Numbered from the stretch's first letter, positions 1,733 to 48,934 are shown. The stretch is DNA of 64,000 nt from a virus (IMGVR_UViG_3300037264_003623:32001-96000); one strand, 5' to 3'. Numbers and translations are program-made. Notes: generated by a model not told the origin, from the sequence alone.

Positions 1733-2098
1733 ATGAAAGTTGCAAAGGAGATGGTACAGCAAAACCAAGACAAGGAGAGTCTTGCCAAGGAACTCGAAAT
1801 GCTTGCTGGAGAAGCAAAGGGTATCAGCAAGGAGATCGACCGGATCAAACGGAAACTCCTCCCGCTCATGAGCCTGGGCGAGCGCATCGGCCTCGTCGAG
1901 AAGTCCCAGCGCGAGTCGCTCGACGTCTCCGAGGAGATGCTCGCGGCCCTGGAGGTGGAGCTGGGTTCGGAGGTGGTCCGCAAGGAGCTGAACACCTCGT
2001 GGCTCAGGGAGAGGATGGCGGAGGACACGACCCTCGACAAGCGCATCCCGCGCAAGGCTGGGGACCCGTTTCTCACGGTCGGGGAGAAGAAGTCGTGA
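1733..2098 (+). CDS. hypothetical coiled-coil protein
   Basis: ATG 1733 after GGAG; stop overlaps next GTG. Confidence 0.65.
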   Translation: MKVAKEMVQQNQDKESLAKELEMLAGEAKGISKEIDRIKRKLLPLMSLGERIGLVEKSQRESLDVSEEMLAALEVELGSEVVRKELNTSWLRERMAEDTTLDKRIPRKAGDPFLTVGEKKS

Positions 2099-2538
2099 TC
2101 GTCGAGGTTTACCTCCTAGTCAACATCCATGGCACGAAGACCAAGCAGTGGGTCGTCGTGGGCGCGGGCAGAGCGTTCCCCGAGGTCATCGCCAATCTGG
2201 AGGTGGCGAAGAGGATGGCGTGGCTCCTCGGGCGGGCGACCTCGCTGAAATCCGACATCGGCGTGAAGGACCGGGAGAAGGCGTGGAAGGACGCCGAGAA
2301 GGCGCTCGTCGGGGAGATCAAGAGGTCCATCTCCGTCGAGAAGAGCAAGTGCCCGCAGGGCAGGATGTGGACCGGGATGGACGACATCGGATTCACGGCG
2401 TGCGTCAGGTGCCTGCACCTGAGGGAGGACAGGGATCGGTTCAGGGTTGCCCCGGAAATGGGCACGGGCGTACCCGCGTGGGAGTGCGGGGCGATCCTCC
2501 AGGAGGTCCGGGTGGCTCGCAAGCTCGCGGACAGGTAG
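2095..2538 (+). CDS. Cys-rich hypothetical protein with C-terminal VARKLAD tag
   Basis: GTGA coupling to upstream gene; CxxC; ends EVRVARKLADR. Confidence 0.65.
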   Translation: MIVEVYLLVNIHGTKTKQWVVVGAGRAFPEVIANLEVAKRMAWLLGRATSLKSDIGVKDREKAWKDAEKALVGEIKRSISVEKSKCPQGRMWTGMDDIGFTACVRCLHLREDRDRFRVAPEMGTGVPAWECGAILQEVRVARKLADR

Positions 2539-2541
2539 GGC

Positions 2542-2880
2542 ATGGCGAACAATGGCTGGTACAAGACGGGCTGCATGCCCAAGGAAGATCCGGCCACCGA
2601 CAAGCAGCTCTGGTTCATCAGGAAGTACCACGAGGCGGTCCTCGACGTGCTGGAGCCGGAGGAGCGGGTCTCCGTCGAGCTGATGGGGTTCCAGGAGTGG
2701 ATGGGGACCCTCACCAAGGCGGAGGCGTCGGGGGTCATCGGGATTCTGAAAGGCGAAACTGTGGCCCACGCGGTGTCCAGGAGCACCGAGGTTGGATCGC
2801 GGATGGTCGCCATGTCGATCGAAAAGAAGCCCAGTAGGAAGTGGTTCGACACCGGAATGACAAGGAGGAAAAGGTCATGA
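2542..2880 (+). CDS. hypothetical protein (PATDKQLWFI motif)
   Basis: ORF coupled to neighbours. Confidence 0.65.
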   Translation: MANNGWYKTGCMPKEDPATDKQLWFIRKYHEAVLDVLEPEERVSVELMGFQEWMGTLTKAEASGVIGILKGETVAHAVSRSTEVGSRMVAMSIEKKPSRKWFDTGMTRRKRS

Positions 2881-3317
2881 CGAAGAGGATCATCAGGGAC
2901 GCTGAGGTGGCCGAGTTCCTGGCGTCGTTCAGGGAGAGGATACAGGGGGAGCAGGAGCGGAGCCCCGTCTGGCAGGAGCTGGTCTCGTTCCCCGGATGGG
3001 GTATGGCGAAGTTCACGCCCGAGTTGGCGAAGATTCCCATCATCCCCACGGCGGAGCTCCCAGACCCGAGGATGACCGCGCAGGGCAGGGCCGACTTCGT
3101 GAAGGGGCAAGAGGGCGCGGTCACCGACGAGGGGAAGGGTAAGCCGACTCCGGGTGCGATGACCTCCGTGGCGATGCCGGGCGGGGTCAACCCGTGGGCG
3201 GACGTCCGCAGGCCGACTGACAAGGGCCCGGTCTTCCTCGCGTCGAAGACCGACGTCCCGCCGCCGTTCCCGGGGGCGTGGGAGAAGCGCGAGGGGGGAT
3301 GGTTCAGGAAGGAGTAG
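2877..3317 (+). CDS. hypothetical protein
   Basis: AGGAGG RBS, ATGA overlap. Confidence 0.65.
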   Translation: MTKRIIRDAEVAEFLASFRERIQGEQERSPVWQELVSFPGWGMAKFTPELAKIPIIPTAELPDPRMTAQGRADFVKGQEGAVTDEGKGKPTPGAMTSVAMPGGVNPWADVRRPTDKGPVFLASKTDVPPPFPGAWEKREGGWFRKE

Positions 3318-3320
3318 ACC

Positions 3321-3491
3321 GTGCTGGAAGAACTGGGAAGCGGGATCAGCCACGGCTGGATTCCCAAGATCATCTTCGGGATGGGGATCGCCTTCCTCGC
3401 TGCGGGGCTGGTGAGAGAAGAGGATTGGCTGATGGTCGCCGGGACGTTGATGATTACGGGCGGAGCGATCTTGAAGTGGGAGAAGGAGTGA
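3321..3491 (+). CDS. small membrane protein (two predicted TM helices)
   Basis: 56 aa, below ORF-track cutoff; IIFGMGIAFLAAGLV and WLMVAGTLMITGGAIL; GGAG RBS. Confidence 0.6.
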   Translation: MLEELGSGISHGWIPKIIFGMGIAFLAAGLVREEDWLMVAGTLMITGGAILKWEKE

Positions 3492-3664
3492 CCCATGCCC
3501 GGCAGGGAAGACCTTATCGACGCCAAGCGCAGGCTATACGTCGAGCTTCTCAAGATGCAGCCCGACCAGGCAACCGACTCTGACCTGGAGCTGATGACTG
3601 CCCTCATGAAGGACGCGGGCATCCAGAGGATTCTCGACAAGCGGCTGAAGGAAAGGTCAGGGCC

Positions 3665-5352: not shown

Positions 5353-5625
5353 ATGCAGTTCCGCGTCATCGATACGAAGACGGGCAAGGAGCCCGACCTG
5401 GAACAGATCGCCATCAACGAGGACTGGGCGAAGCGCCTCATGTACTGCGACATGGAGGGCTTCGCCGTTGAGGACGATGGCACCCTGCTTTTGCTCGACG
5501 AATGCGGGAACTTCGCCTACTGCCCGCCGGGCCGGTTCAAGGTGGTTCCCGACTTCTCCGCCCTGGTGGAGGCCAAGGAGGTCGGAGAGATCATGGGGGC
5601 GGACGATGAGAAAGTCGGGCGATAG
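5353..5625 (+). CDS. hypothetical protein
   Basis: TAGATG coupling. Confidence 0.65.
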   Translation: MQFRVIDTKTGKEPDLEQIAINEDWAKRLMYCDMEGFAVEDDGTLLLLDECGNFAYCPPGRFKVVPDFSALVEAKEVGEIMGADDEKVGR

Positions 5626-13181: not shown

Positions 13182-13499
13182 ATGCTCATCGGGATGAGGG
13201 TTCGGAAGGACACGGATAAGGGCGAGGCTACCGTGTTCGAGTACCGGATGGGCCAGAATGGCAGGGTGGCCCTTACGGTCGGGGATCCGAACGAGATCGT
13301 CTCGGAGATCACGCTGGGGTCGGGGGACAACACGATGATCGAGGACATGGGCGGGTCATACGGGGTGAGGATGCCCCCGTTCGCGAAGGGGGCCGAGAAG
13401 ACATACACCCCCGCCGACGGGGTGAGCTTCATCCTTGCGCTCCTCGTCCAGTTCAGCAGGAACAACGGCTACTCGTGGGCGGAGCCGATCCTCTCATGA
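13182..13499 (+). CDS. small kinase partner protein (putative immunity/antitoxin)
   Basis: Directly follows kinase 1; paralog of 14686-15006. Confidence 0.6.
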   Translation: MLIGMRVRKDTDKGEATVFEYRMGQNGRVALTVGDPNEIVSEITLGSGDNTMIEDMGGSYGVRMPPFAKGAEKTYTPADGVSFILALLVQFSRNNGYSWAEPILS

Positions 13500-14689
13500 A
13501 GACGTTCTACTCCAGGAAGTTCGCGAGGTTCATGGGTTCCATCCTGGCGAAGGCCACATGGGACCCGGATCTCCACCCGAGGAGCGAGGGCGGGAAGTTC
13601 TCCAGGACCGAGGGAGTCTCTGAGGAGAGGCGGGTCGCGGAGAGGCTCATGGGGACCTCGGCGGATCAGCTTGAGGCGGAGGCACGGGAGACCGAGCGGG
13701 AGGCTTCCGCGCTGAGGGCGATGGGGAAGGGCGAGAAGGCCGCGATGGCCGACGCCGTGGCGAGGGACCTGATGGAGAGGGCGAAACTGGCGAGGGAGCC
13801 GGTCAGGGTGTTCAGGCCGGGATCGGAGCCGAGGAGGCCCGCCCCGCCGATAGATCCCACGAGGCATCCGCAGGAGTCCGTGAGGGGGAGGGCAGAGACG
13901 ATGAGAAAAGCCTCGGGGAAGCCTGAGGCTTTCATCATGAACACGCGCAGGGTCATGGGGGGCAAGGGAGAGTGCCACCGAGTCCTCTTCGACGACGGGA
14001 CCAGGGCCGCCTACAAGCCGACGGCGGGGTCCGTCCTTGTGCAGATGGAGAAGCAGGGCCGGGGTGAGGAGATCACGATCGACCCGAAGATCCCGGAATC
14101 GAAGCGCGAACGGGCCGTCTTCGATCTCAGCGCGATGGCCGGGTTCGACGTGGTGCCCCCGGTCGAGCTCGTGGACTACGATGGGGTGGGGTCCCCCGGG
14201 GGCGGGCACGCTATGGCATGGGTGGACGGGCAGGAGGCCATTGACATCGAGGACCAGTACTACAAGGACATCTCCGCGAACCATCCCGACCTTCACCGGA
14301 TTGCGGCGCTCGACTTCATCACGGGCAATGTAGACCGGCACCAGGGGAACTTCATGAGGGGGAAGGACGGGCGCTGGTACGCGATCGACAATGGCCTCTG
14401 CTTCACCAGGGACATGGAGCTCGGGATGTCGTGGTCCGATGTCATGCGGAAGCTCATGATGCACGTCACGCCGCCGGAGGTGCGGGCGGAGATCGCCTCG
14501 ATCGACAAGGACGCTATGGGCGGAATCATGAAGGAGGCGGGCTTCGACGCCGTGGACATCAAGGCCGCGCAGACGAGGCTGGATGTGCTCAAGGCCTTGG
14601 GCGGGTGGGGGACGGAGGGGCAAATGTACGGGGCGGCCGAGGACGCCTACTTCCAGGCGGGTGGGCGCAGGCGGCCAGGGAGGGAATGA
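13496..14689 (+). CDS. PI3/4-kinase-like (HipA/CtkA-type) kinase, paralog 2
   Basis: AYKP, RERAVF, NVDRHQGN, AIDNG; N-terminal LAK|ATWDPDLHPRSEGGKF. Confidence 0.85.
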   Translation: MKTFYSRKFARFMGSILAKATWDPDLHPRSEGGKFSRTEGVSEERRVAERLMGTSADQLEAEARETEREASALRAMGKGEKAAMADAVARDLMERAKLAREPVRVFRPGSEPRRPAPPIDPTRHPQESVRGRAETMRKASGKPEAFIMNTRRVMGGKGECHRVLFDDGTRAAYKPTAGSVLVQMEKQGRGEEITIDPKIPESKRERAVFDLSAMAGFDVVPPVELVDYDGVGSPGGGHAMAWVDGQEAIDIEDQYYKDISANHPDLHRIAALDFITGNVDRHQGNFMRGKDGRWYAIDNGLCFTRDMELGMSWSDVMRKLMMHVTPPEVRAEIASIDKDAMGGIMKEAGFDAVDIKAAQTRLDVLKALGGWGTEGQMYGAAEDAYFQAGGRRRPGRE

Positions 14690-31638: not shown

Positions 31639-31639
31639 T

Positions 31640-32567: not shown

Positions 32568-32595
32568 TTGACGAAGACCGTGATATGTGTATAAT
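32568..32595 (+). promoter_or_regulatory. early promoter TTGACG-N16-TATAAT
   Basis: Repeated family. Confidence 0.85.
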
Positions 32596-32622
32596 ACAGG
32601 TGTCGAGTTTGAGGTACGCGAG

Positions 32623-34419: not shown

Positions 34420-35097
34420 GCGGATGTGCGCCGGACGATAGCGCGAACCGGTTCTACATCGGGGATCTGATGATCTCCGCCGAGCCCTTGTATCACGTCT
34501 GGACCCTGATCGACGGCAACCTTGGGGAGGGGACTCTGCGCTCGATGTGCGGACTCACGAAACGGCGCGATGAGATATCGCTGTATCGGGGAATGTGGAG
34601 AAAGTTGAAGCGGTACAGGGGTGGTCTCTGCAAGAAGTGTCGGTGGGAGGAAGTCCAGGCCGCTGCCATACTTTCGGATGTCGACAGGAACGTGACTCTG
34701 GACGAGCATGATTTTCTGGCGGCCATGTTCGATGAGGAGGATGAGGGTCTGCCGTGAGGATGTTCATCTACGTCAAGGACACGCCGGAGCAGCGGAAGGC
34801 CCGACGCCGGTTTCGGAACCGGTCCCCGAGGCGGGTGGTCCACACCACGACATCTTTCGCATCGGCCGGGGTCTACCTCTGCGGCTGCGGCCTGAAGGCC
34901 CGTGTAGACGACGTCAAGGACTTCGAGTCGGTCGCCGGGAGGGTGTCCAACTCCTTCGACATGGACAGGGCCGGGGGGGTCGAGTGCATCGACCAGATGT
35001 CGTGCTGGGAGTGGTGCCCAGGCTGCCGTGAGGACTATATGACGGAGGTGACGGCGGAGATCCTGGCTGGGAAGAGGTGATTTTTTTAGGTTGGGTC

Positions 35098-35125
35098 TTG
35101 ACGAAAGGACGAAAACATCTATAAT
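35098..35125 (+). promoter_or_regulatory. early promoter TTGACG-N16-TATAAT
   Basis: Repeated family. Confidence 0.85.
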
Positions 35126-35991
35126 ATGGGTGTCGGTTTGAGGTAAGTACCGTGAAGATGATGGAGGGTGCATGAGGCCGATCTGCGTGAGGTGTCGCCG
35201 GGAGATGGCCCCGGGGGTCAACGAGTTCCTGGTCAAGGACAAGGCTGTCGGCAATTCCCCGTCGACCTACCGGTTCGGAGACCTGTTCGAGTGCCCCGAC
35301 TGTGGGGCCCAGGTCGTCGTCGGATTCGGGAAGGGGCTGACGGAGTCGGAGGTCGGGGGCAGGGCGAAGGACGCGCTGGAGTTCATTCGATGAGACGGTC
35401 CTTCTTCAGCAGCCACGATAAGGAGTTCGCCGCCGTTCATGCCCTGGAGCGCAGGGGATGGTGCCGGGCGTGCTCCGCTGCCCCGTCTCTGCGGAGCCTG
35501 AGGGTGCCGGTCGAGATGGTCCCGATGCCGTACCGGGGGAAGAACTGGTTCCATCTCCGAATCGTTCCGTGGGCACCCAAGTGGGCGGTGGGACTGGTTA
35601 AGCGCATGAAGGGGCTCAAGGTCAGGCGGTCGGACAGGGCCGCCGCCTTCAAGGAGGCGCTGGAACTGGGGGGAGCGGGCCCCCTTGCCGAGGCTATTAT
35701 CGTGGCCGGGAAGATGATGAGGTAGGCCATGCATTATGTGTTGATCGCGAGGAAGAGAGGGTTGAACCTCCATCTCCCACCCGGCGCCAGGAGATGTGGG
35801 AAGATCCACGCCTATGAGGAGGAACCTAATGTGGGGGAGCCCATCGTGTCTTTGTGCGGTCAGCGGGCCGTGTCCCATAGGTGCGACTTCCCGGGGAATC
35901 CGCTTCCCAACCGCCGCTGGAAGGTCTGCAAGAGGTGCCTCCCGGCGATCGAAGCGGAGACGGTGGGCAAGATTTTGGCAGAGAGGCCGCC

Positions 35992-38355
35992 ATGACCGAC
36001 GCGGACATCTTCTACAGGGAGCCCGGCACTGGATGGAGGAAGTACTGCATCCGGTCGGGGACGCGGAAGGAGATCGAGGAGACGGCCAGGGATCTCCTCA
36101 AGAGCCTGCGGGAGGAGAGCGCGAGGTCCTCGGTCAAGATCGTGTGGCCGGGGAACCGGACGACGATGGTGCGGCTCCAGAGTGGTGCCGCGAAGGGGGC
36201 GTGATGGACCAGAAGATGAAGGCTCTCATCAAGAAGTTCGCCGACTTCTTCCTGATGGATCCGGCGTTCAAGGACATCCCGGACGACATCATGGGGGCGG
36301 TCTCCGACCCGGCTTTGGCCCCTATCCTGGCCTCGACGGCGCACGTCTTCCTCTTGGGGAAGGAGGACAACGGGACGGACGAGGAGCTGGAGAAGGAAGG
36401 GGACGCCCTTTTCCATGCGTTCTATCTGGAGAGCCTCAGGCGGATGTTCGCCTCCGACCGGCCGAAGACCTTCGCCTTTCGGGACCGGAAGGTCCGCGAC
36501 TTCATGAAGGTCTTGGAGTTCGCGTTCGACGAGGACGAGGCGATCCACTCGATGCGTCTGAAGATCCAGGGGCTTATCGGCATCGAGCTCTCGGTCGAGA
36601 AGATGCGGGAGATCATGCAGGAGACGATCGCGGACGCGATCAGGCCCCACGAGGGAAGATGATCGAGCAGGGCGAGCCGGTGAAGGCAAGGTTCGGGAGG
36701 ACCGCGCCTGTCGGGGATGGGTGGGTCTACGGGTGCATCGTCTGCAAAGTCAGGCCGAGAACCCTGACGATATGCAAGTGTCTCTCCGACGGGAACGAGT
36801 ACGCCTTGTGCTTCCCGTGCCTGGACGCGATGGGCGACCTCGGGATGGTCGAGGAGAGGATCGAGACATACGTCTAGGAGTCCGGCAACAACTTCACTTT
36901 GAGGCATACGACGACAGTCAACAAGCACGACCTGACCCGGTGTCCAAGGGACGAGGGCCTCCGGGCGGCGGTCATGCTGGCGAGGCGGTGAGCGCACACC
37001 GTGTGCGCGGATCAGAGGAAGTGCGGGTACTGCGGAATGACGGGCGATCGGCGCACACGGTGGAAGATGTTCCAGTGCTCGTGCGGGAAGATCCACTACT
37101 TCTGCGAGCTCTGCTACAGGGACCTCCTGAGCAAGGGGATCATCGTCCGCAGGGGGCGGAGGGGCGGGGGGAAGAAGGACTTCCTGAAGGCGTGCCCGGC
37201 GGAGGTCCGTGTCGCCGAGGCGATTATGCGGGAGAACCGCAGGGTGGACTGGGAGGTCACGAACCTGTGATCTGCGATCTATGCAAGACGGCTTTCATCT
37301 CCAGGGGGTCGGTTCGGGACCTCCAGTGCGGGTGCGGGAGCGTCTACCGGGCGTGCCTGACGTGCAGGCGTGCCCTGCTGAGGCAGGACTTCGCCTACTA
37401 CGAGGGCAAGGGGATGGTCCTCAAGATATGCCCGACGGCATTAGAGGTCGCCCAGAGGCTGATGGATGGTGGGGACGGCGGATGAGCGAGTCTCTATGCG
37501 TGATCTGCGGGAAGGGGCAGTACCAGCCCGACGAGCAGGGGGGGTACATCGGGATGCGCGACGTGTTGTGCGCGTGCGGGGATGTCCACCGCGTCTGCAA
37601 GCGGTGCTGGACGAACCCCGGGAGCAAAGTCCTGGCCGAGGCGTTCTCCTGGGATTCCAAAACCTGGATGGGGGACGCCAAGTTCGACGTGTGCCCGAAG
37701 GATATTCTGGTGGCCTGGAGGTTGATGGGATGATCAGGTTCAAGAAGAGCATGTTCGGGTTAGGGGCCAACTCCTGCGTCTCGCCGACGAAGGGGACGGC
37801 GGACAAATGCGAGGGGTGCCCGGTCAAGGGCCTGGTCGGGATCGTGGTCGTGGTGAAGGTGGGGCCGAGGCCGATCGGGAGGGGATGATGCCCAGGGAAG
37901 ACCCGATCCGCGAGTACTTCGAGATCGATCTCCCCGACAAGAGATTCCGTGAGCAGAACGAGCGCCTTCAGCGGAAGATCGACGAGGGCATCGGGATGAG
38001 GGGGAGTCCGCCGCGTTTGAGGAAGACATGGTGGATCTCCACTCCAGGGATGGATTCCAAACGTGCGTTCGGTCTCTCCGATGCCATTGAGGCGCTCGAC
38101 TCCCCGGACATGATCTCGGATATGGGCCACATCCCTCTGGTCCGGTGGAGCGGGTGTTTGTGGCACCTGATGGTTTCCTCCCACTGCAACCCGGCCAGGG
38201 TGGTGTCGGCGTGCGGAGAAACCTTCCCGATGGGAGAGAGGGTGGAGGGGAAACTGGAGATCGAGCCGAACCGGAACCTGACCTGCATGGGGTGCTGGAC
38301 CCACGTCGAGGCGGCCAAGGTCGCCCTGATCCTGGCGGGGGAGAGCGATGAGTGA
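35992..38355 (+). other. run of small early ORFs (35992-36204, 36204-36662, 36659-36877 or 36991, 37001-37270, 37267-37485, 37482-37733, 37885-38355)
   Basis: Four related CxxC..CxCG..CxxC..CP proteins ending in the tag. Confidence 0.6.
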
Positions 38356-39979
38356 GGCCGACCGCTTCGCCGGATTTCCATCGCCCTCGTGGGCATCGCC
38401 CGCTGGCTGGGCCCGGCTTCACCTGGGGAACTGCGTCGAGGTGATGAGGTCCCTGCCTGAGTCCTCGATCGACGCGATCGTGACCGACCCCCCGTATGGT
38501 ATTGAGTTCATGGGGAGGGATTTCGACAAGTTGGGGCAGGGGCCGCAGATGCAGGAATGGCACCGGGCGTGGGCGGTCGAGGCTCTTCGAGTGGCTAAAC
38601 CCGGTGCCTTCCTTCTTGCCTTTGGCGGAACCCGGACTTGGCATCGACTTGCGTGCGCGATTGAGGATGCAGGATGGGAGATCAGGGATACTCTCATGTG
38701 GATGTACGGGCAGGGATTTTCTAAAAGCATGGATGTCTCGAAGGCGATCGATAAGGCGGCGGGGTCTGATCGGGAGAAGATCCCGGAGGGGAACTCCGTA
38801 AAGCGGATGGTGCCGGGGGCGGACCAATACAAGACTAATTCCTGGATCAAAAGCGACGATCACATGTACCAGTCGGGGCGGGAGGTTCCGGTGACGGAGG
38901 CCGCGAGGACTTGGGAGGGCTATGGCACATCGCTAAAACCAGCCTGGGAGCCGGTCGTGGTCGCCCGGAAGCCCCTGGCCGGGACGGTGGTTGATAACGT
39001 CCTGAAGCACGGGACGGGGGCGCTGAACATCGATGGGACGAGAATCAGGATCGCGCCCACTTCTCAGGATGGCTCTCGTAGTAGTCCTGATGATAGCATT
39101 TGCGACACATGCCCTTCGCGTGAGGTTTCCCATACTGTCCGCAGCGAGGACATTCACATGGAGGCCTCGTCTGCTCCTCAACGCGACGGTCGTAGCGTCC
39201 TTCGACCCAGTGAATCCGAATATGAGATCGAGAATCAATCACGCATAGATTCTCGGGCGAGTCGTCGTCCTTCCTACCGTTTAGATGATGGACTTGCTCA
39301 TGCGGAAGAAGAGCCCGACCAAGCATACGTTCAGCAACGACTCGGTGATACCGAGTCTCCCGTCCGTCAACTAAGCAGCAGGTGTATCCACGCGGGTCTT
39401 TCCACATGTTTACATCGTACTACACCACATGTTGAAAGTCAAGGCCGCTTCCCCGCGAACGTGATCCACGACGGGAGCGAGGAGGTGGTAGGGATGTTCC
39501 CCGATCGCAAGACGACCTGGATCGATCCGTCTCATGCGAACAACCGGGGCGGGGATTTCCTGGGGGCTCTTGGGCATCCCGGGATGCAGGGGTTCAACGA
39601 CTCCGGCTCCGCCGCCCGCTTTTTCTACACGTCGAAGGCTGATGCGTCCGAGCGGTGGTTCTACTGCCGGATCTGCCAGGGGGCCTACCCCGCGTCCGCG
39701 GAGCAGGGGCACCACCACGGGAAGGGGCTGGGGAAGTGCCAGCACATCTTTAGACACCCGACCGTGAAGCCCTTGTCTCTATGCTCTTGGCTCTGCCGCC
39801 TCGTCTCGATGCCAGGGGGGAGCGTGATCCTCGATCCGTTCATGGGGTCGGGCTCGACGGGCGTGGCGGCCCTCGTGGAGGGCCAGCGGTTCGTTGGGGT
39901 GGAGATGGACGGGGAGTTCTTCGCCCTATCGGCGGCCCGGGTCGCGGACGCGAAGCGCCAGCCGGGCCTCTTCGACTGA
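38348..39979 (+). CDS. DNA amino-methyltransferase (N6-A/N4-C, beta class) with an in-frame insertion
   Basis: DAIVTDPPY, LKPAWEP, HPTVKP, ILDPFMGSGSTG. Confidence 0.9.
   Translation: MSEADRFAGFPSPSWASPAGWARLHLGNCVEVMRSLPESSIDAIVTDPPYGIEFMGRDFDKLGQGPQMQEWHRAWAVEALRVAKPGAFLLAFGGTRTWHRLACAIEDAGWEIRDTLMWMYGQGFSKSMDVSKAIDKAAGSDREKIPEGNSVKRMVPGADQYKTNSWIKSDDHMYQSGREVPVTEAARTWEGYGTSLKPAWEPVVVARKPLAGTVVDNVLKHGTGALNIDGTRIRIAPTSQDGSRSSPDDSICDTCPSREVSHTVRSEDIHMEASSAPQRDGRSVLRPSESEYEIENQSRIDSRASRRPSYRLDDGLAHAEEEPDQAYVQQRLGDTESPVRQLSSRCIHAGLSTCLHRTTPHVESQGRFPANVIHDGSEEVVGMFPDRKTTWIDPSHANNRGGDFLGALGHPGMQGFNDSGSAARFFYTSKADASERWFYCRICQGAYPASAEQGHHHGKGLGKCQHIFRHPTVKPLSLCSWLCRLVSMPGGSVILDPFMGSGSTGVAALVEGQRFVGVEMDGEFFALSAARVADAKRQPGLFD
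39045..39407 (-). CDS. HNH endonuclease nested antisense inside the MTase
   Basis: YHRVVAERMLGR.L...EQVHHLNGRKDDDSPENL...H; C-terminal CxxC..CxxC. Confidence 0.85.
   Translation of the reverse strand: MWKDPRGYTCCLVDGRETRYHRVVAERMLGRALLPHEQVHHLNGRKDDDSPENLCVIDSRSHIRIHWVEGRYDRRVEEQTRPPCECPRCGQYGKPHAKGMCRKCYHQDYYESHPEKWARS
39414..39442 (-). promoter_or_regulatory. antisense promoter TTGACT-17-TACGAT of the nested HNH (leaderless)
   Basis: ATG 7 nt after -10. Confidence 0.75.
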
Positions 39980-40076
39980 GACATCCCCGTCGGATTTCGG
40001 GAAAGAATCTCGCCGGTTCGCCGTAAGTCATTCCCTGTCAACCGATAAAAACTTGCGGGGGAAAACGGATTTCCCC

Positions 40077-40116
40077 TTGACGAAAGGGACGAAACGTATA
40101 TAATATGGGTGTCAAG
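40077..40116 (+). promoter_or_regulatory. early promoter with GTCAAG
   Basis: Repeated family. Confidence 0.85.
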
Positions 40117-40132
40117 AGTGGAGGAGAAAGAG

Positions 40133-40627
40133 ATGAGCGAGACGATGACGAGAAGCGGCCTGGTGGACCTGATCAACGCCAAGGGCGGCGCCTTCCCGGT
40201 GGGGCTCCTCACGAAGACCCAGCCGAAGGTCCGCAAGACCGGCAACCCCTACCCCGAGATCAGCCGGGTCACCCGGCGCAACATGTTCCTCGGCGCCTCC
40301 TACGAGTCCTGCGTGAACAACAAGCAGGAGCGGCAGGGCGGAGAGCGGGACTTCGAGGCCGAGTCCCTTCCCTGGGGCGAGCACAGGGGCCGGTTCCTCA
40401 TCGAGCATAAGGGCAAGACCTACCTCGCCGCCTACCCGGTCGCGAGCGGCTGCCACGGCGAGGACAAGTGGATCACCCCGGACGGGGTCGAGGTGGACTT
40501 CTCCGTGGTCGAGCCCTTCCTTCCCAAGTCGAACGAGCCCAAGTCGGGCGTGGCCTGGAGGACGATCGCCCTGGAGAACATCCTGGAGGTCTCCCTCGAC
40601 GGGCGGACGATCACCCTGGTCGGCTAA
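40133..40627 (+). CDS. conserved phage hypothetical protein
   Basis: RKTGNPY..YESCVNNKQER..LPWGE..EHKGKTYL. Confidence 0.75.
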   Translation: MSETMTRSGLVDLINAKGGAFPVGLLTKTQPKVRKTGNPYPEISRVTRRNMFLGASYESCVNNKQERQGGERDFEAESLPWGEHRGRFLIEHKGKTYLAAYPVASGCHGEDKWITPDGVEVDFSVVEPFLPKSNEPKSGVAWRTIALENILEVSLDGRTITLVG

Positions 40628-40931
40628 ATAGGGGCGGGGAGGCTTCCCGCCACCCGGCCCCCCTCGGCCTTCGGTCTCTGACTGGGGGGTACCGAGATAA
40701 GGGGGTCGGGCGGCAGGGGGCCTCGGGCCCCGAGATGGAGGATACGATGGACGAGCGCGAGAGCAACGAGGCGGCGGACGAGCTCCTGGCGGGGATCCGG
40801 CGGGTCGAGACGGAGCGGTGCAGGCGGGACCGCCGGAATTGGCGCCGCAGGGAGCGCGAGCAGTGCCTCCGCGACCTGGGGCTCACGAAGGTCAAGGGCA
40901 CCCTGGGCGGCACCTACTGGGAGTGATCGCC

Positions 40932-41201
40932 ATGAAGAACCCCTGCGGCAAGCTGCGTCCCATCGAGGACCCCTACGCCGTCTACTGGTCGGCGGACGGG
41001 TGGGAGTGGAGGGTCCTGAAGAAGAACCTGTCTCCCGACCAGGAGGCGAGGAACCCCTTCGCGGCCTGGTTCTGCGCCACGAAGTCTCCCTTCACGTTCG
41101 GGCGGTACGAGTACGGGGACGTGTACGCGGCCGATGTGCTCAAGAACGGGGTGGACGTCACGGAGGAGACGATGGTGGCGGATAGGATCGCCGGGGGGTG
41201 A
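40932..41201 (+). CDS. hypothetical protein with C-terminal VADRIAG tag
   Basis: GWEWRVLK..WFCATKSPFT.G.YEYGDVY. Confidence 0.7.
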   Translation: MKNPCGKLRPIEDPYAVYWSADGWEWRVLKKNLSPDQEARNPFAAWFCATKSPFTFGRYEYGDVYAADVLKNGVDVTEETMVADRIAGG

Positions 41202-41218
41202 TCTTTTCGGATTTCCCT

Positions 41219-41246
41219 TTGACGAAAGGGGGAAAATACCTATAAT
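41219..41246 (+). promoter_or_regulatory. early promoter TTGACG-N16-TATAAT
   Basis: Repeated family. Confidence 0.85.
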
Positions 41247-41273
41247 ATACACAGTGAGAGTGGGGGACGGGAG

Positions 41274-41539
41274 ATGCCAAAGGTTGCAAAGACGTACATC
41301 CGGCCCTCTCCGAGCGGACAGGGCTGGAGGTCCGCCGGGAGGGCGGGGAGTCGCATCACGTCCGGGCGGTCGGGCATGACCGGGACACGGGCGAGCCCCG
41401 TCTGGCGTGCGACTGCGAGGGGTTCCGGTTCCGGCGGCGCTGCTGCCACATCGAGGAGGCCGAGGCCGCCGCGAACTTCGACGAGGAGATGATGCACGGC
41501 GAGATCGAGGTCGACTGGCCGTGGCCGTTCACGGATTGA
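41274..41539 (+). pseudogene. frameshifted SWIM zinc-finger gene
   Basis: ACDCEGFRFRRRCCHI lies in the -1 frame relative to ATG 41274; that frame has no upstream start. Confidence 0.6.
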
Positions 41540-41549
41540 GGAGGACGCG

Positions 41550-44159
41550 ATGATCACCAGGTCGAGCGACTGGCTGAAGAACGACTCCAGGTTCAAGTCC
41601 TGGGGCAAGAAGGTCCGCCCCCAGGACGTGGACCTCTCGAAAGAGAACGGATACGCCCTCGGGGGCGCGTGGGCCCGGTGGGACGAGAGCGTGGCCCTGG
41701 GGGCCGGGGAGTTCCTGGTCGTGGCGGCGGAGACGGGGAGCAGGGCGAGCCACGACTACGACTACGCCCTCATCGAGGGAGGAGAGACGGCGCGGTGCCT
41801 GTTCAACGGGCAGGACAAGGCCAAGGGCCTTCCGGCGGAGGAGTGGAGGGCACTGAAGGAAGCGGCCCTGAAGGACCTGCCCGAGGATCAGCGGGCCAAG
41901 GCGATGAACTCGACCCTGTATCGGTTCGCGGCGGTCATCCATCACCTGGGCCAGTCGGAGCGCGTGGCGAAGGCCCTCGGGGACATCCAGGAGGAGGTCC
42001 GGGGATCGGCCTGGTGCGGGATCTTCAGGGGGAAGGACGGCAACGGCACCCCCCGGACGATCCTCGGCACGCACGCGGTCGCCGAGACGCGGGACGAGGC
42101 ATACGAGAAGGGTAACGCCGATCCGGACTTCCTCGGGGTGGTGAAGGTCGAGGTCGTGTGGGGCGGCAAGATGCCGGAATGACGATGACGAAAGAAGAGC
42201 TGGATCTTTGCTTCCACCGGGCGCATCAGGAGGTGGAGGACTTCGCGGTGAAAGCCGCGATCCCGTGGGAGGACGGGAAGAAGGTCGAGGTCACCACGGA
42301 GCAGGCGGCGGCCTTCCTCCGGTGGCAGGCCCTCCAGCTCAACGGCGAGTGGGATGCCGAGGCGCTGAAGGATGCCCGCTGGTGTCTCTGTACCAAGACG
42401 GAGCTTATCAAGGGAGGGCCGGGCTGGGTCCTAGTATGGGACGGGGGCGTCCAGGGGGCGGTTCGATGATCGTCTTCAAGCATCTTGAGTACCGGATCTA
42501 CAAGGTGAAACGGCACCGTCAGTACAGCTACGACCTCCACCGGTACGTCGAGAAGCGGGAGTACGACTACGAGCATCCCGTCGTGAAGACGCGGGCGCAT
42601 TCGCATCTCTTCATCCGGGAGGAGGGGATAGGTGGATGTCCCCGTGCGGGCACGAGATCGAGCACAAGGCGGCCTTCGGGGGTATCCGCCCCGAAGACCT
42701 TGATCACGCAGTGGAGATTTTCGTCGGTAGGGAATCGGTCATCCTTCCCTGCCTGAAGTGCAGGGATTGGCTGCGGAGGAACAAGGAGGCGGTGCTCGCC
42801 GCGGAGCACCTGAATAGAGAATGATCGTGATCAGAAACAAGGGGACGATCTTCGAACGTGGGGTAGTGCATGTCTTCGTCCGGCAGGGATCCGAGTTCAG
42901 GGCTCTGTGTGGGGTCAAGGCCGACTTCCCCGCCTCCGAAATGCGGACGCTTGCCGAGGACATCCTGTCAGAGGACGGGGCCGAGCGGGCCGTCGAGAGG
43001 TTCAAGAGGGTTCGGGATGGGTGCGAGAGGTGCGCGGTCTGGCTGGAGAAGAACTGGGATGCCCTGGTCGTGGCGGAGCGCCTGGCGGCGACGAGGTGAT
43101 TCATGTTCGTCCTGGTGGGGAAGGATCTGGTGGACCTGGTGACCCGGCGCATCCCCGAGGTCGTCGAGAAGGTGATGCAGAGGGGCCACTCGAAGTGGTG
43201 CGATAGCGCGAGGATCGTCCCCTGGTCGGCGGGTGACGAGGTGGGGGCGACCCTTCGGGTTTCCATCAAGCCTTCCTCCGTTCGGGCCTCGCGTGGGGAC
43301 TTCGCCCTCTCATGGGGCGTGGCGCTCAACGGGCAATCGAAGATGGAGATCGCCCTCTATGACGGGGACATGGCGGGCCTTCTTCACGAGTCACTGTTCG
43401 GTCGGGATGGGCAGGTGGACGACGTGAGGCTCGACCTCGACTCGGCCATCAAGGGGAGGGTGGGGTGCGCGGACGTGAATGTCCTCGTGAGCAGGGTCGT
43501 CGAGAAAGTCCGGAACGCGGTGGTGGCCCACAAGATGATGGAGGGGGCATGACGAGGTGCAAGTTCGACCGGTCGAACAAGGGGGGCGTGACCTACGAGA
43601 AGCCCTGCCGCGTATGCGGGCTGGGGATCATGCGGGCGCTTCGGGACGACTGCCCGTACCGCAAGCTCGAAGGGAAGCTCGCGGTCCTCATCAAACGGCA
43701 CCTCGCCTACTACGAGGGGATCGGGTTGGCGCTGAAGGACGTGAGGAAGTATCGGAGCACCGGGGAACCGGCGCTGTCGGACCGAGAGGAGATCGAGAGG
43801 TTGAAGGGGAGGAAGTCATGAGCGAGCAGGGTGTCAGTCTGGAGTTCTTCGCCGGGGCGTGCAAGTTGCTCGCCAGGAGCTTCGGGAACCGGCTCATGGA
43901 CGTGTCCACGGCGAACGCGATCAAGGACCATTTCGCCGACATCGAGGCCCTCTACAAGACGCTGGAGATGGTCCCCAGGCGGAAGCCGGGGCACAAGGGC
44001 AAGAACGCCTACTACTGCACCTGCTGGGACAGGGACGCCTGGGTGGAGCCGATAGGCGGGGATGCGGTGAAAGACAAGAGCGTCCGGCGGGGCCGTTCCG
44101 ACGGGCCCCTCCACGAGCGCGGGAGCGAGAAGTGCTGGGTCGGGAAGGAGAAAAAGTGA
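41550..44159 (+). other. run of early ORFs (41550-42182, 42179-42469, 42636-42824, 42821-43099, 43103-43552, 43549-43821, 43818-44159)
   Basis: Coupled ORFs, several with the tag. Confidence 0.6.
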
Positions 44160-44566
44160 ACGAGGAGAGGCTGTTCTCGATGCTCCAAGAGCTGACGGAG
44201 GCCGTCGTCGCCCTCGCGAAGGCGGTCGAGGCCGGGCGCAAGGAGACGGAGCGTCTCTGTGACCTGATCCAGCCGATCACCGAGAAGGTATTGGATTCCG
44301 AGGACGAGGGGAGGGTTGCCAGGGCCATCATGGGCCCCCCGAAAGTGGGGATGATGCTTCGCAACGACTACGCGGCCCTCAAGGACGCGATCGAGAATCC
44401 CCCCGATGCGGGCAAGAAGATCAGTGCCATAAAGGCCGTCCGGTCGGCGACGAGAAGTAGCCTGAAGGACGCGAAGGACCTGGTCGACAAGTATTGGGAC
44501 ACGCTGGAGAGAAGGCGGAATCTCCTCGACATGTTCGATGTTGGTGAGGCACCTTCCCCCGTATGA
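44156..44566 (+). CDS. protein with ribosomal L7/L12 C-terminal-like domain
   Basis: GKKISAIKAVRSATRSSLKDAKDLVD. Confidence 0.7.
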   Translation: MNEERLFSMLQELTEAVVALAKAVEAGRKETERLCDLIQPITEKVLDSEDEGRVARAIMGPPKVGMMLRNDYAALKDAIENPPDAGKKISAIKAVRSATRSSLKDAKDLVDKYWDTLERRRNLLDMFDVGEAPSPV

Positions 44567-45123
44567 CGAGGCAGTGCGCGTGGTGCGGGAACTTCGACGG
44601 CCAGTCTTACTGGAAGGTCGTCGGCGGGATCCTGGGCGGGAAGAGCGGCAGGGCGCGGGGCGTCTGCCGCCTACGGGATTTCCATGCGATCGTCGTGGAC
44701 GAGCTGGGTAATAGGAATGAGATTGATGTCTCCTGCTGCTCGAAGAAGGAGGCGGACCTCTGGGCGAAGGCTCTCGGGAAGGGGGAGATCAAGTGGGTCC
44801 TGGGGCTCTGATCCTGCCGAAGGCGTTCTTCGACGCCCTGACTGCCGGGAGCCTGCATCGGAGGGACGTCGGGTTGTCGGTCGCGTTGCGCGACGATGCG
44901 ACGATCCTCGAAGTCATCGCCGGAGGGGAGACTCATTCGTTCGCGATCTCCCGCGCCAAGAAGAACGGGAAGATCCACATCAGCGCCCTCTTCACCGAGC
45001 ATCTATGGGCGGAGGATGCGAGGGGGTGGGAGGTGGCGGGCAGGACCATACGCGGGGCGGTGGAGGCGGCATGGGTCGGATCCGTCTTCGCCAACGATTG
45101 ACCTGCTTTTTTTCGGTTTCCTA

Positions 45124-45163
45124 TTGACGAAAGGGAGAAAACAGATATAATATCGGTGTCAAG
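45124..45163 (+). promoter_or_regulatory. early promoter with GTCAAG
   Basis: Repeated family. Confidence 0.85.
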
Positions 45164-45178
45164 AGCGAGGAGGATGAA

Positions 45179-45580
45179 ATGGGCTGGTTGTTCATGTTCG
45201 AGATGGCGACCCGCAAGGCGATGATCGCCGATCGGATCGCCCCCCAGGAATGGGTGAACCCGGACGGGACCAAGTGCTCCCAAACGACCCTCGCCCACAC
45301 GTTCAAGGGGTCCCCCTTCGCGGGGGTCCTCTACTACGTGCGCGAGACCCGGATCGGCGAGAAGACCGATCGGTTCATCCAGATCGACCTCCTCAGGTAC
45401 TCCAAGACAGACGGCCCCGGGTGCTGGGGCTACAAGGACATGACAGAAGAATGCGGACCAAACCACGTATCATGCCCCCGCAGTTATTTGGGCATGGTTC
45501 CTTGCCCTGACAATCAGATCGCAAGAGCATGGCGGGGTAGAGTATTGGCATGGCATGATGAAAGATACAAAATTACTTGA
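45179..45580 (+). CDS. DUF6927-like protein with replacement C-terminus
   Basis: MGW start; WGYKDM.E..GP...CP. Confidence 0.7.
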   Translation: MGWLFMFEMATRKAMIADRIAPQEWVNPDGTKCSQTTLAHTFKGSPFAGVLYYVRETRIGEKTDRFIQIDLLRYSKTDGPGCWGYKDMTEECGPNHVSCPRSYLGMVPCPDNQIARAWRGRVLAWHDERYKIT

Positions 45581-45612
45581 CAGCGGGGGGAATGATTTTG
45601 TATCCTAAACAC

Positions 45613-46197
45613 ATGAAAACAAAAACATGTAGCCGATGCGGCAGGAACCTTCCGGCCACAGAGGAATTTTTCTTCAGAAAAAGCAAGAGGACCGGCTGGT
45701 TGTCGGGGTGCCGGGACTGCCGAAGAGTTTTGTCGAGGGATGCTTATCGCAATCGCAACAGAATCAATCACGGAAGGCTGCAAAAACTGGAGGAGCTTAG
45801 AGTCTGGAGGAGCAAGTACGGCCTCCGGAAAAAGGCGGCACAGAGGTCACATGACCCAATCGGTTATTATGCGTCTGTCATGTTCAATTCTTCTTACAGG
45901 GCATCTCTTCGTAAGAAGATACCGCATACCATTACCAGGGCATGGATCCGGCAACAGTTAGACAAGGGGATATGCTCGGCAACTGGGCTACATTTTAGAT
46001 TTCCGAAACCAGAGGAAGGGAACCTTATAGGGCGGGATCCTTACCGGCCTTCACTTGACAGAATAGACAACACCAAGGGGTACACCCCGGATAATAGCAG
46101 AGTAGTTCTTTGGTGGTACAACGTCGCCAAGGGGCCTTGGTCGGACGAAGAGATGCTGGTCTTGGCGGAGGCGGTAGTCCGTTACGTAAGACGATGA
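45613..46197 (+). CDS. HNH/His-Me homing endonuclease (SxDRID type)
   Basis: KTCSRCG Zn ribbon; PSLDRIDNTKGYTPDN..YN; lower GC; TTGACA-18-TATCCT promoter. Confidence 0.85.
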   Translation: MKTKTCSRCGRNLPATEEFFFRKSKRTGWLSGCRDCRRVLSRDAYRNRNRINHGRLQKLEELRVWRSKYGLRKKAAQRSHDPIGYYASVMFNSSYRASLRKKIPHTITRAWIRQQLDKGICSATGLHFRFPKPEEGNLIGRDPYRPSLDRIDNTKGYTPDNSRVVLWWYNVAKGPWSDEEMLVLAEAVVRYVRR

Positions 46198-46352
46198 TGG
46201 GGCCCTGCTACTACGGGTGCCCCCTCAAGTACCTGGAGATGGTGCCCTGCCCGGACAGTCAGTACGCCCGCGAGTGGCGGGAGGTGGTGAAGCGGTGGTG
46301 GGCGGTCCAGCGGGAGCGGAGGCAGGAGCGCAAGGCGAGGCAATCGGCGTGA
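46194..46352 (+). pseudogene. displaced original 3' end of the DUF6927-like gene
   Basis: MGPCYYGCPLKYLEMVPCPDSQYAREWR vs CGPNHVSCPRSYLGMVPCPDNQIARAWR. Confidence 0.85.
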
Positions 46353-46997
46353 GGTGTTGGATGCCCGAGATGCCCGAGATGCCCTTAGAAGTGAAGCTGG
46401 CCATCGGACGGTTGTTCAGGATGATGAGCCGCCCCAGTCAGCCTGGCGATGTGGACATGTTCTACAAGTGCCGATCCATCATCCTGAACGCCGCGGAGGC
46501 CGGGGGTGTCTCTGTGGATGACTATCAGCCGAACTGGGTCCGAGATCGGTTGAAGGGTGCCCAGGGCGATTGAGGGGGGTGGGAGATGAGGCGGTTGGCG
46601 GTATGGATTCTCAGGAGAGCGGCCTTGCTCTGCTACCGGGGCGAGGTCATCTTTCGGATCGGATGCTGGCCGGGGCCGAATGGTTCCGGAGAAAGAGTTA
46701 CGGAGGGAGGGGCAGGTGAAGATTCTCGACATGTCGGTGGTGGCGGTTCGGAAGCCACTAATTAGCGACACGAGGGAGTGCGACTGCTGCGGCAAGACGA
46801 TACCTCGCAAGACGAAGGCGTTGCGGGGCAAAGTTAGGGAGGGTTACGCAACCACGACGCTGTACGTCTGCGGAGACTGCGAGACGGCTTACGGGGGAGA
46901 GGAAGCGATCAAGAGGGCCCACGCGAAACTAGTCAGCGACATCCGGACGATGCTCGCCAACGCGAAGCCCGCGACGGACATGGATTTGAGGTGATAC

Positions 46998-47810
46998 GTG
47001 ACCTGGTTCAAGATCGAGTGGCCGAAGATGGTCGAGGTGGTTCCCGAGGGGCAGATCGGGGAGGCCAAGGTTATGCACTTCGAGGTGTCGGAGAAGATGA
47101 GCCGCATGACGTCCATCCGTGCGGCCCTCAACTCCAGCCGGAACGAGTACGTCCCCGGGGGCCGATACGCGAAGCTCATCGTCGGCCAGGACTTGATGAT
47201 GAGCGACACGCTCATGGAGCAGTCCACGAACGCCAGGGCCGTGATGGAGGCCAACGGTGACGTTCTGATTGCGGGTATGGGGCTCGGGGTCATGCTGATC
47301 CCGGTCTGCCGCAAGCCTGATGTCAGGAGCGTCCTGGTCGTCGAGAAGTCCGCCGACGTGATCGTCCTGATCGAGCCCCACGTCCGCCGGTTCCTGGGCG
47401 CGGACGCCGCGAAGCTCACGGTGGTCCAGGGGGACATCTTCGACTTCAAGCCCCCCAAGGGGCAGAAGTGGGATGTTCTGTGGTTCGATATATGGGCGCA
47501 AAAGTGCGAAGACAACCTGGACGAGATGAGCGTCCTGAAGCGCCGGTTCGCCCGGCGGCTCAATCGCGGGAATCCGAAGTGCTGGATGGGTGCGTGGGAG
47601 GAGGCACGCCTCCGCTACCTCCGACGGCAGAGTAGGCGCGAGAACGCATACCAGATGGCGAGGGGCCTCGATAGCGAGGAGAAGATCGCCGACTTCGTGT
47701 CGGCGTTCGCCGAGGCCACGGGGGAGGACCAGGGGGATGTCCGGAGGGAGGTCGTCGGGATCATCCGGGACGTGCGGATGTCCGACCGGGCGGTGGTGGC
47801 TAGGGTGTGA
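46998..47810 (+). CDS. class I SAM-binding, spermidine-synthase-like protein
   Basis: MMSDT, GDVLIAGMGLG, VVEKS, GDIF, DVLWFDIW. Confidence 0.75.
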   Translation: MTWFKIEWPKMVEVVPEGQIGEAKVMHFEVSEKMSRMTSIRAALNSSRNEYVPGGRYAKLIVGQDLMMSDTLMEQSTNARAVMEANGDVLIAGMGLGVMLIPVCRKPDVRSVLVVEKSADVIVLIEPHVRRFLGADAAKLTVVQGDIFDFKPPKGQKWDVLWFDIWAQKCEDNLDEMSVLKRRFARRLNRGNPKCWMGAWEEARLRYLRRQSRRENAYQMARGLDSEEKIADFVSAFAEATGEDQGDVRREVVGIIRDVRMSDRAVVARV

Positions 47811-47831
47811 TCGTTTTTTTTTGCTTTCCTC

Positions 47832-47871
47832 TTGACGAAAGGGAACAAACGGATATAATATGAGTGTCAAG
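47832..47871 (+). promoter_or_regulatory. early promoter with GTCAAG
   Basis: Repeated family. Confidence 0.85.
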
Positions 47872-47887
47872 AGTGAGGAGTAGGACG

Positions 47888-48319
47888 ATGATCTGGAACA
47901 CCGAAGCGACGAAGAAAGCGAAGAAGGTCCTGGTCCAGGACGTCCTGGAGCGGTCCGACGATTTCGTGGTCAGGGCGCTCAAGGCCGTCTACGCCCGGCA
48001 GACCGCCGACGAGCGGGGGGCCGAGATCACCGTCCACCAGAACGGGAGGGGCTTCACCGGCTTCGACGCCCACATCCTCTCCTCCTTCGCCAAGCAGGTC
48101 GAGAAGTGGGAGGCTGCCGCCGAGAGGCAGTTCCCCTCCCCTCTGTCCCCCAAGCAGATGGCGACTGCCCGCAAGATGATGGGCAAGTACTGGGCACAGC
48201 TTATCGAGGTGGCCGACGAGAAGGCGAAGACCGCCCCTGCCCCGGTCGTACCCGTCCAGGCTCCCGCGGTCCTGCGGGTGTCCCCCTACAAGGGGCGGCG
48301 GATAGCCGAGGCGAGTTAG
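47888..48319 (+). CDS. conserved phage hypothetical protein
   Basis: YARQTADE..NGRGF..FDA.ILSSFA..LSPKQ..KYWAQL. Confidence 0.75.
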   Translation: MIWNTEATKKAKKVLVQDVLERSDDFVVRALKAVYARQTADERGAEITVHQNGRGFTGFDAHILSSFAKQVEKWEAAAERQFPSPLSPKQMATARKMMGKYWAQLIEVADEKAKTAPAPVVPVQAPAVLRVSPYKGRRIAEAS

Positions 48320-48322
48320 GAC

Positions 48323-48934
48323 GTGAGGACGGACATGTACGCGAATCGAATCGATTTGACCGAGGACGAGATCCTGCTCCTCGACGGGAGGAGTCGGGCG
48401 GAGGTCCAGTCCGAGGTAGATAGGATCAAGTCCTTCCGGGCCAAGGTCGCGGGGGGGATGAGCATCTACATGGCCCGGATCATCTCTGACGCTGAGACGA
48501 CGGGTATCCTGGACTTCAAGAACTCATCAGGAGGGAAATGCGCCCGGTGCGGGGAGCCGGGGTCGTCTGATGCCGTGTACCTTCGGGGGCCGAATAGGGG
48601 CCAGAGGAAGAAGCGCAACCCCACCATCTATCACACGACCTCTTATGTGGGGAGTCAGAGCTTCTGTATGGGGTGCTGGCCGACCGTCATGAAGGAGCTC
48701 AGGGAGATGGACCACGCCCCGCTTTACGAGATCAAGATACAGGGGATCGTCAACAAGGTGATCCTCGATTTGGAGATGAAGTGCTACGGTTGCGAGCTGG
48801 TGTATTGGAAGACAGAGACGAAGGCCGGGTGGGATTGCCCTAGCTGCGGGAGGAGTATGAGACCGTTCAATGGGTCAGGCAAGAGGATCATCGAGATCGC
48901 CGCGCTGAACGCGGCTAATATACTGATGAGGTGA
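48323..48934 (+). CDS. zinc-finger hypothetical protein
   Basis: Four CxxC; ends AANILMR. Confidence 0.6.
   Translation: MRTDMYANRIDLTEDEILLLDGRSRAEVQSEVDRIKSFRAKVAGGMSIYMARIISDAETTGILDFKNSSGGKCARCGEPGSSDAVYLRGPNRGQRKKRNPTIYHTTSYVGSQSFCMGCWPTVMKELREMDHAPLYEIKIQGIVNKVILDLEMKCYGCELVYWKTETKAGWDCPSCGRSMRPFNGSGKRIIEIAALNAANILMR

Follow-up and report, generated by a model that had tools for sequence, protein, structure and literature searches.

Peptides serving several proteins as a common address have been described for capsid cargo, encapsulins, and replisome hubs. In bacteriophage T4, the capsid-targeting sequence is situated N-terminally on late-expressed proteins (IPI-III, Alt) and is cleaved off at a prohead-protease site. 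Short terminal peptides, such as the clamp-binding C-terminal ones of T4 gp43, gp33, and gp55 or the ClpX-binding tail of SspB, enable unrelated proteins to share a hub, to which they bind in an extended state. In poxviruses, the ankyrin proteins bear a C-terminal PRANC/F-box-like motif with Skp1 as its receiver. The peptides of encapsulin cargo are rich in Gly/Ser and Leu (e.g., LGIGSLK) and extended when bound, their receiver being the adjacently encoded shell of the HK97 fold. PMC7925596 presents the cargo-loading peptide of encapsulins as a short C-terminal peptide on otherwise unrelated proteins, addressing one receiver. The present analysis deals with an 11-residue, mostly C-terminal motif (hereafter, the tag) recurring on about 20 proteins of an uncultured virus represented by the 109,083-bp record IMGVR_UViG_3300037264_003623, of which a 64,000-nucleotide (nt) stretch, bases 32001-96000 (hereafter, the window), was analysed. 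Positions refer to the window unless marked as genome positions.

To our knowledge, no address peptide shared across a whole set of early phage proteins has been described, and a literature search for the motif found no description of it. We suggest, with a probability of roughly 0.45, that the tag represents a lineage-specific, portable helical module for docking or addressing.

The motif and its carriers

The window is characterized by a GC content of 63%, a strong purine skew, and genes situated almost exclusively on the plus strand. Our own codon-usage model called 156 genes, 153 of them on this strand. The initial annotation had listed 17 strings of a putative shared tag at the ends of open reading frames (ORFs). 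All of them (17/17) were found at these ends, the last one, at 48934, being a weak match; C-terminal placement holds for the listed set, except that the tags of the genes ending at 5625 and 37270 stop several residues earlier (Table 1). The consensus can be written as E-[EA]-hydrophobic-x-V-A-x-[RK]-[LMI]-[MA]-G. The tag at 42824 features Asn at the [MA] position and still reaches a position-specific scoring matrix (PSSM) score of 19.7.

A C-terminal enrichment is borne out by two patterns. The strict one, V[AG]x[KR][LIM][AM], had 8 matches within the final 11 positions of the 153 proteins vs. 2 matches in 27,178 inner positions, a 64-fold excess (Fisher p=5e-9). The looser form of the initial annotation, [VA]Axx[LMI][AM][GRDE], yielded 10/1716 C-terminal vs. 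7/27219 inner matches (p=7e-9). The loose form had no C-terminal matches in two unrelated control phages of high GC content and with Shine-Dalgarno-coupled genes (Thermus phage P23-45 and mycobacteriophage L5; same gene caller), and no matches when the same 3' ends were translated in the other two frames.

The motif search on tails against shuffled and internal windows, suggested earlier as a check, was run as a blind expectation maximization with zero or one occurrence per sequence over the last 20 residues of 147 proteins. It rediscovered the motif as E-A-h-x-V-A-x-[RK]-[LM]-[AM]-G (h, hydrophobic) with a log-likelihood ratio of 202, as compared with 157+-9.5 (maximum 172) for random internal windows and 164+-9 (maximum 184) for shuffled tails. 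An 11-residue weight matrix at a score of at least 12 gave 15 C-terminal vs. 5 inner matches in this genome, a circular count, since the matrix was trained on the same sequences; the respective numbers were 5 and 2 in fragment G2 of the relative described below, and no C-terminal match was obtained in either control phage. Overall, the observation of the motif is confirmed and strengthened.

Further instances were found beyond the listed set: a weak one in 28238-28468, four at C-termini in the initial 4 kb of the genome, and, as internal copies, those in 13496-14689, 32034-32549, and 44156-44566. The last of these is the internal VARAIMG reported earlier ahead of an L7/L12-like domain, and it is indeed present there (44303-44335), as well as in the relative; in this protein, a segment resembling the L7/L12 C-terminal domain (PF00542, E=8e-7) follows a helical N-terminal part ending in the tag. 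Three proteins of the relative also possess such copies, one of them, the 205-aa (amino acid) protein at G1 65010-65627, at its N-terminus. Internal matches scoring at least 10 numbered 10 vs. 2.2 in residue shuffles, and the high-scoring ones are followed by a Pro- or Gly-rich linker.

The description of the carriers as mostly unrelated stands only in part. On the one hand, just three small paralogue groups were recovered by BLAST and profile iteration (37001/37267/37500 with 5784-6335; 29234/29738; two genes upstream of the window), and profile searches between subfamilies found no similarity beyond the motif. On the other hand, at least 11 carriers share a layout in which CxxC or a single C is followed, after 6-12 residues, by the tag. 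Carriers lacking this pattern are 29738, 35390, 40932, 43103, and 5353; in 5784-6335, the helix runs on into a longer protein. Searches of Pfam and PHROGs returned no usable family for any small tagged carrier, all Cys-rich carriers lacked Pfam matches at E<=0.1, and the ESM Atlas yielded only phage clusters without names. The C4 zinc finger of DksA/TraR (PF01258) was considered on the grounds that E. coli DksA ends in ..KQMAG; it was dismissed, the Cys-rich carriers giving no such match at this threshold.

Selection at the protein level and portability

The codons at the conserved residues of the tag vary (GTG/GTC/GTT; GCC/GCG/GCT; CTG/TTG/CTC/ATC/ATG), and across 19 tag segments the identity at codon positions 1, 2, and 3 was 0.56, 0.50, and 0.46, i.e., the lowest at the third. 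The distance from the V codon to the next start codon ranges from 20 to 33 nt (hand count), and behind the tags ending at 35080 and 41201, a T-run and a promoter stand in place of a close gene. Comparison of orthologous tags with the relative phage revealed 19 codons with synonymous differences only; the four core positions of the tag were 79% identical, as compared with an identity of 57% over entire proteins and of 56% at the variable positions of the tag. The codon variation, the variable distance to the start, and the tags without a close gene together indicate that selection on the tag acts on the protein and not on the DNA.

A single related lineage was found. The closest relative is one phage present on two IMG/VR contigs (122 and 64 kb) with a protein identity of ~66%; further relatives are represented by a few short metagenome contigs (42-57% identity). 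The tag is retained in relatives spanning 33-66% identity. In orthologues it is kept as, e.g., VAHKMMEGA, VAESLAG, VAYKLMG, VVDALMG, VAGRMMG, and TAVMLARR, and in the more distant contigs as VAERFAE, VAEKLTG, VAHKMLEAA, CERIMEGL, HERLTEGS, and VAAILMD. In the family of 43103-43552, VAHKM does not vary at an identity of 49%, and LAMRMMK forms the end of a member that is 33% identical.

The portability of the tag is best illustrated by two carriers belonging to widespread families. The protein encoded at 40932-41201 is a member of a small phage family, of which 55 homologues were found. About 30 members from other phages end 16 residues past the conserved GDVY, at a total of 74-77 aa, and the extra segment DVT-x-E-x-x-[VAM]-A-x-x-[LI]-[ATM]-G is confined to the five closest members (P0004-P0008), which belong to this lineage (63-70% alignment identity). 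A further member, P0036 (47% identical), ends with DDEAMRVVLAGGELV, a near-variant of the tag. The second family, that of 5353-5625 (197 matches), possesses a DECG..GRFKV core and, on some members, DUF551. Its homologues, up to 83% identical, align over the first ~65 residues only and either stop soon past the core or bear different extensions; the tag was found in none of the 56 outside homologues inspected (best matrix score 5.9 vs. 16.7 here).

The AlphaFold2 model of 40932-41201 features a core at a predicted local distance difference test (pLDDT) score of 95 followed by a helix at residues 77-88, and that of 5353-5625 comprises a confident core, a helix at 69-81 with pLDDT ~54, and then a disordered tail. 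These two predictions are in line with the short helix proposed by the initial annotation. A Foldseek search with the 40932-41201 model against PDB gave no match at E<=0.001 and only weak Tudor-, chromo-, and Sm-like rows. Two families that are tagged in this lineage alone, with the predicted helix behind the core, indicate an appended module rather than a part of the fold. In occurring on two mutually unrelated families, the tag displays the portability of a generic short linear docking motif.

Two unrelated tagged genes of two lineages (5569-5625 and 2622-2678 in L019) have a common 19-codon tail in the same register, its last five codons (EKVGR) being identical at 14/15 nt. This similarity hints, on sequence grounds, that the tag and the gene end may move together as a cassette.

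Genomic setting of the tagged genes

The genome harbors 16 near-identical consensus sigma-70 promoters (TTGACGA-N17-TATAAT) on the plus strand at genome positions 7264-79832, with ATGxGTGTCaAG behind them; many are situated directly after T-runs. Eight fall within the window: seven head operons with tagged genes, and the one at 30251 heads a tRNA cluster. Beyond 47.8 kb, no promoter of this type was found; this region is taken as the structural module, with no capsid or structural gene identified in it. The sigma-70 operons argue for transcription by the host RNA polymerase and, hence, for early or middle expression.

Table 1. Tagged genes and promoters of the window (tag sequences with their positions; PSSM score where available)
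Feature	Position	Strand	Tag and remarks
Tagged gene, 147 aa	2095..2538	+	2500-2532 QEVRVARKLAD, PSSM 18.7; orthologue in relative VARRLADR
Tagged gene, 90 aa, DECG..GRFKV family	5353..5625	+	5569-5601 EAKEVGEIMGA, 7-residue tail
PI3/PI4-kinase-like protein	13496..14689	+	13622-13654 EERRVAERLMG, internal, near N-terminus, PSSM 20.5
Tagged gene, 95 aa	29738..30025	+	29984-30016 RALQVAERMMG, PSSM 24.4
Tagged Cys-rich gene	33722..34054	+	34010-34042 YDARVVEILAG; L019 orthologue ends VAERFAE
Tagged Cys-rich gene	34754..35080	+	35039-35071 MTEVTAEILAG; T-run and promoter behind, no close gene
Tagged gene, 111 aa	35390..35725	+	35690-35722 EAIIVAGKMMR; orthologue VAGRMMG
Tagged Cys-rich gene	35729..35995	+	35951-35983 EAETVGKILAE
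Tagged gene with in-frame TAG at 36875-36877	36659..36991	+	36953-36985 EGLRAAVMLAR; single ORF in relative
Tagged Zn-family gene	37001..37270	+	37199-37231 AEVRVAEAIMR, 12 residues short of end
Tagged Zn-family gene	37267..37485	+	37435-37467 TALEVAQRLMD
Tagged Zn-family gene	37500..37733	+	37698-37730 KDILVAWRLMG
Tagged Cys-rich gene	37888..38355	+	38308-38340 EAAKVALILAG
Tagged gene, 89 aa, small beta-barrel family	40932..41201	+	41163-41195 EETMVADRIAG; promoter behind, no close gene
Tagged Cys-rich gene, start uncertain (ORF open from 42489)	42636..42824	+	42786-42818 EAVLAAEHLNR
Tagged Cys-rich gene	42821..43099	+	43058-43090 DALVVAERLAA
Tagged gene, 149 aa	43103..43552	+	43511-43543 RNAVVAHKMME
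L7/L12 C-terminal-domain-like protein	44156..44566	+	44303-44335 DEGRVARAIMG, internal, then PP linker; same in relative
Multi-Cys protein	48323..48934	+	48899-48931 AALNAANILMR, weak, PSSM 11.4
Eight sigma-70 promoters	28182, 30251, 32568, 35098, 40077, 41219, 45124, 47832 (span 28182..47860)	+	

In the tagged gene 36659-36991, the in-frame TAG stands where the relative reads CAG. The frame is preserved over the 38 codons past it, where 6 synonymous and 3 replacement changes distinguish the gene from that of the relative (hand count); no suppressor tRNA for this codon was found among the 9 tRNAs of the window. The TAG could reflect a recent nonsense mutation or read-through. The tRNA genes (Tyr, Pro, Phe, three Leu, His, two Thr) comprise eight at 30461-31789, with an HNH-like ORF (31054-31587) in the cluster, and a tRNA-Thr apart at 27558-27630.

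The head of the tag-rich region encodes a phage ECF-like sigma factor (32934-33461; Sigma70_r2 and r4) and a protein with a cREC_REC receiver domain (34051-34419). A block of ~18 kb (6338-24000) comprises an AAA ATPase, an HExxH protein (8090-8818), two PI3/PI4-kinase-like paralogues, and large proteins of no assigned function. The HExxH motif beside the AAA+ gene lacks Pfam support and was set aside. Upstream of the window, a 423-aa ORF (genome 25572-26844) lies between phage genes; by eye, its C-terminal zinc-finger signature looks TnpB/IS200-605-like.

The search of sequencing runs located the stretch in one DNA run, a sediment metagenome (probably the source sample), and in no RNA runs. 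No cultured phage matched two stretches of the window at the nucleotide level, and tblastn searches of 50,697 phage records with four tagged proteins as queries gave no match.

Possible roles of the tag and comparison with described systems

As a docking or address module, the tag would form an amphipathic helix of ~11 residues that starts acidic, is capped by glycine, and is placed mostly C-terminally on small early or middle proteins and occasionally at a domain boundary. Its hydrophobic face (V, A, L/M, M/A) may dock in a groove on one common partner (a machine of the host or one of the conserved phage proteins), so that ~20 different effector domains would be brought to one place or one processing step; the outcome may be localisation, assembly, or turnover. 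A broader version, to which we assign only a slightly lower probability, is an address system of the whole proteome: one helix, freely gained and lost at gene ends, would link a single hub to ~20 early effectors (zinc fingers, a small beta-barrel, a DUF551-like domain, a kinase-like enzyme, an L12-like protein).

Several points weigh against a docking module. Since the tag is documented in one phage lineage only, the independent observations are few. In the two AlphaFold2-modelled carriers, the helix may still pack on its own domain; in the at least 11 carriers with the Cys layout, it could have been inherited along with a small zinc domain; and at least one internal match is a false positive, lying within helix 1 of a Hjc-type resolvase. 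No partner or hub was found for the tag, and docking is what we infer. The AAA+ ATPase at 6338-7693, suggested by the initial annotation as a possible hub, is unlikely to be a universal one, because the relative bears tags without it: neither this gene nor the rest of the 6.3-24 kb block has a tblastn match in the relative's 186 kb, and the block is missing at the syntenic junction, where its flanking genes are directly adjacent to each other. The enzyme itself is a classic-clade AAA ATPase (PF00004), for which only ~27%-identical proteins were found in phages, N4-like ones among them. Likewise absent from the relative is the phage sigma factor (32934-33461). The best-conserved untagged gene of the tag-rich region, 40133-40627 (164 aa; 78% and 63% identity in two relatives), belongs to no known family and had no match in a PDB sequence search.

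The helix could instead be a degron or adaptor site handing early proteins over to a host or own AAA+ protease for timed turnover. The host-type promoter operons of the carriers, typical of early genes, and the classic-clade AAA ATPase encoded by the genome would fit this role, and a phage protein engaging a host AAA+ protease has a precedent in SPO1 gp53 and ClpCP (PMC6873191). We regard it as unlikely, given the AAA+ gene absent from the tag-bearing relative and no protease domain identified in its support. Moreover, the tails of 0-13 residues behind the tag and its internal copies imply that recognition does not depend on a free C-terminus; they fit poorly with the degron envisaged earlier insofar as it needs such a terminus, and the tag lacks the placement at the very C-terminus, with a free carboxylate, of the ssrA and ClpX C-motif degrons. 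A comparably low probability is assigned to inheritance, with the carriers being mostly diverged paralogues of one zinc domain that retained a structural helix and the non-zinc cases arising by chance or convergence. The shared Cys layout, the three paralogue groups, and the extended helix of 5784-6335 speak for it; against it are the two non-zinc widespread families devoid of the helix outside this lineage, the carriers without Cys pattern (43103-43552, 35390-35725, 29738-30025), and the dissimilarity of the subfamilies outside the motif. Least probable of all is that the peptide is a mere translation of a ribosome-binding site, a coupling element, or another DNA or RNA signal for the next gene. 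The purine-rich residues past the tag (G, E, D, R) probably owe something to the Shine-Dalgarno sequence, while the tag itself does not, and the near-identical DNA of the EKVGR-plus-stop tail in two unrelated tagged genes would also agree with a nucleotide signal. Still, neither a fixed distance to the start nor conservation of nucleotides was observed: the spacing, the tags preceding a terminator or promoter, the varying codons with the third position least alike, and the absence of matches in other frames and in the Shine-Dalgarno-coupled controls largely refute it. The overlap with the downstream ribosome-binding site, named by the initial annotation as the competing explanation, fails on the same counts.

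Loading of capsids, with the tag docking proteins inside the procapsid or scaffold for packing and injection, appears improbable. It draws on the analogy with the encapsulin peptides and the T4 capsid-targeting sequence, to which the N-terminal copy in G1 65010-65627 might be likened; it is weakened by the sigma-70 operons of the carriers, such promoters being absent from the putative structural module, by the lack of a protease-site-like motif beside the tags, and by a sequence and helical state unlike those of encapsulin peptides. Targeting to membranes by an amphipathic helix of the MinD/FtsA type is very improbable in spite of the C-terminal, helical nature of the tag and the Gly-Gly end of several listed carriers: its mean hydrophobic moment (0.33) and net charge (-0.4) compare with 0.41-0.73 and +2 to +4 in three known helices, and it has small hydrophobic residues and an acidic start. 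Equally doubtful is self-association, i.e., tags binding each other and bundling the carriers into one assembly; the same amphipathic helix on many proteins of one cell would allow for it, whereas a stable coiled coil is usually longer than 11 residues. Also rejected were a tail of the ubiquitin-like ..RLRGG kind and a double-glycine leader, because the tag is helical by prediction and also internal. The likeness to the beta-flap tip helix and to the DnaK peptide NRLLLTG turned out to be generic.

The tag illustrates how phages can rewire old protein families by means of ~15 codons added at the gene end. Should one hub receive all tags, the tag would provide a handle for fishing out that hub, the host-takeover proteins of uncultured phages could be listed from sequence alone, and a portable tag for engineering would be at hand.

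Among the described systems, the encapsulin cargo peptide resembles the tag as a short C-terminal, address-like peptide on unrelated proteins. The tag differs in its sequence, which lacks the Gly/Ser-Leu-rich extended consensus, and in its modelled helix; in addition, its carriers are encoded in sigma-70 operons at 2-49 kb, presumably far from the capsid genes and not beside a shell gene of the HK97 fold; the structural module is placed past 47.8 kb, where no capsid gene was identified. Like the T4 capsid-targeting sequence, the tag places the same short peptide on unrelated proteins of one phage; unlike it, the tag is mostly C-terminal (~20 cases), its flanks share no cut site of the prohead-protease kind, and the promoters are of the host type. 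The tails docking to clamps or ClpX are also short terminal peptides on unrelated proteins, but they show no sequence likeness to the tag, and no link to a clamp or ClpX was found here. The MinD and FtsA helices are similarly C-terminal, amphipathic, ~10 residues long, and often end with Gly; they are cationic and carry bulky hydrophobic residues, whereas the tag bears a slight negative charge, contains Val, Ala, and Met, and has a lower hydrophobic moment. The poxvirus PRANC set resembles the tagged proteins in being encoded by many viral genes, whose products combine variable parts for target binding with one conserved docking element at the C-terminus; PRANC is eukaryotic-viral, longer, and has a known receiver, and the carriers described here belong to several unrelated folds. 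If the address function holds true, the tag would be for bacterial viruses what the linear-motif networks are for eukaryotic ones.

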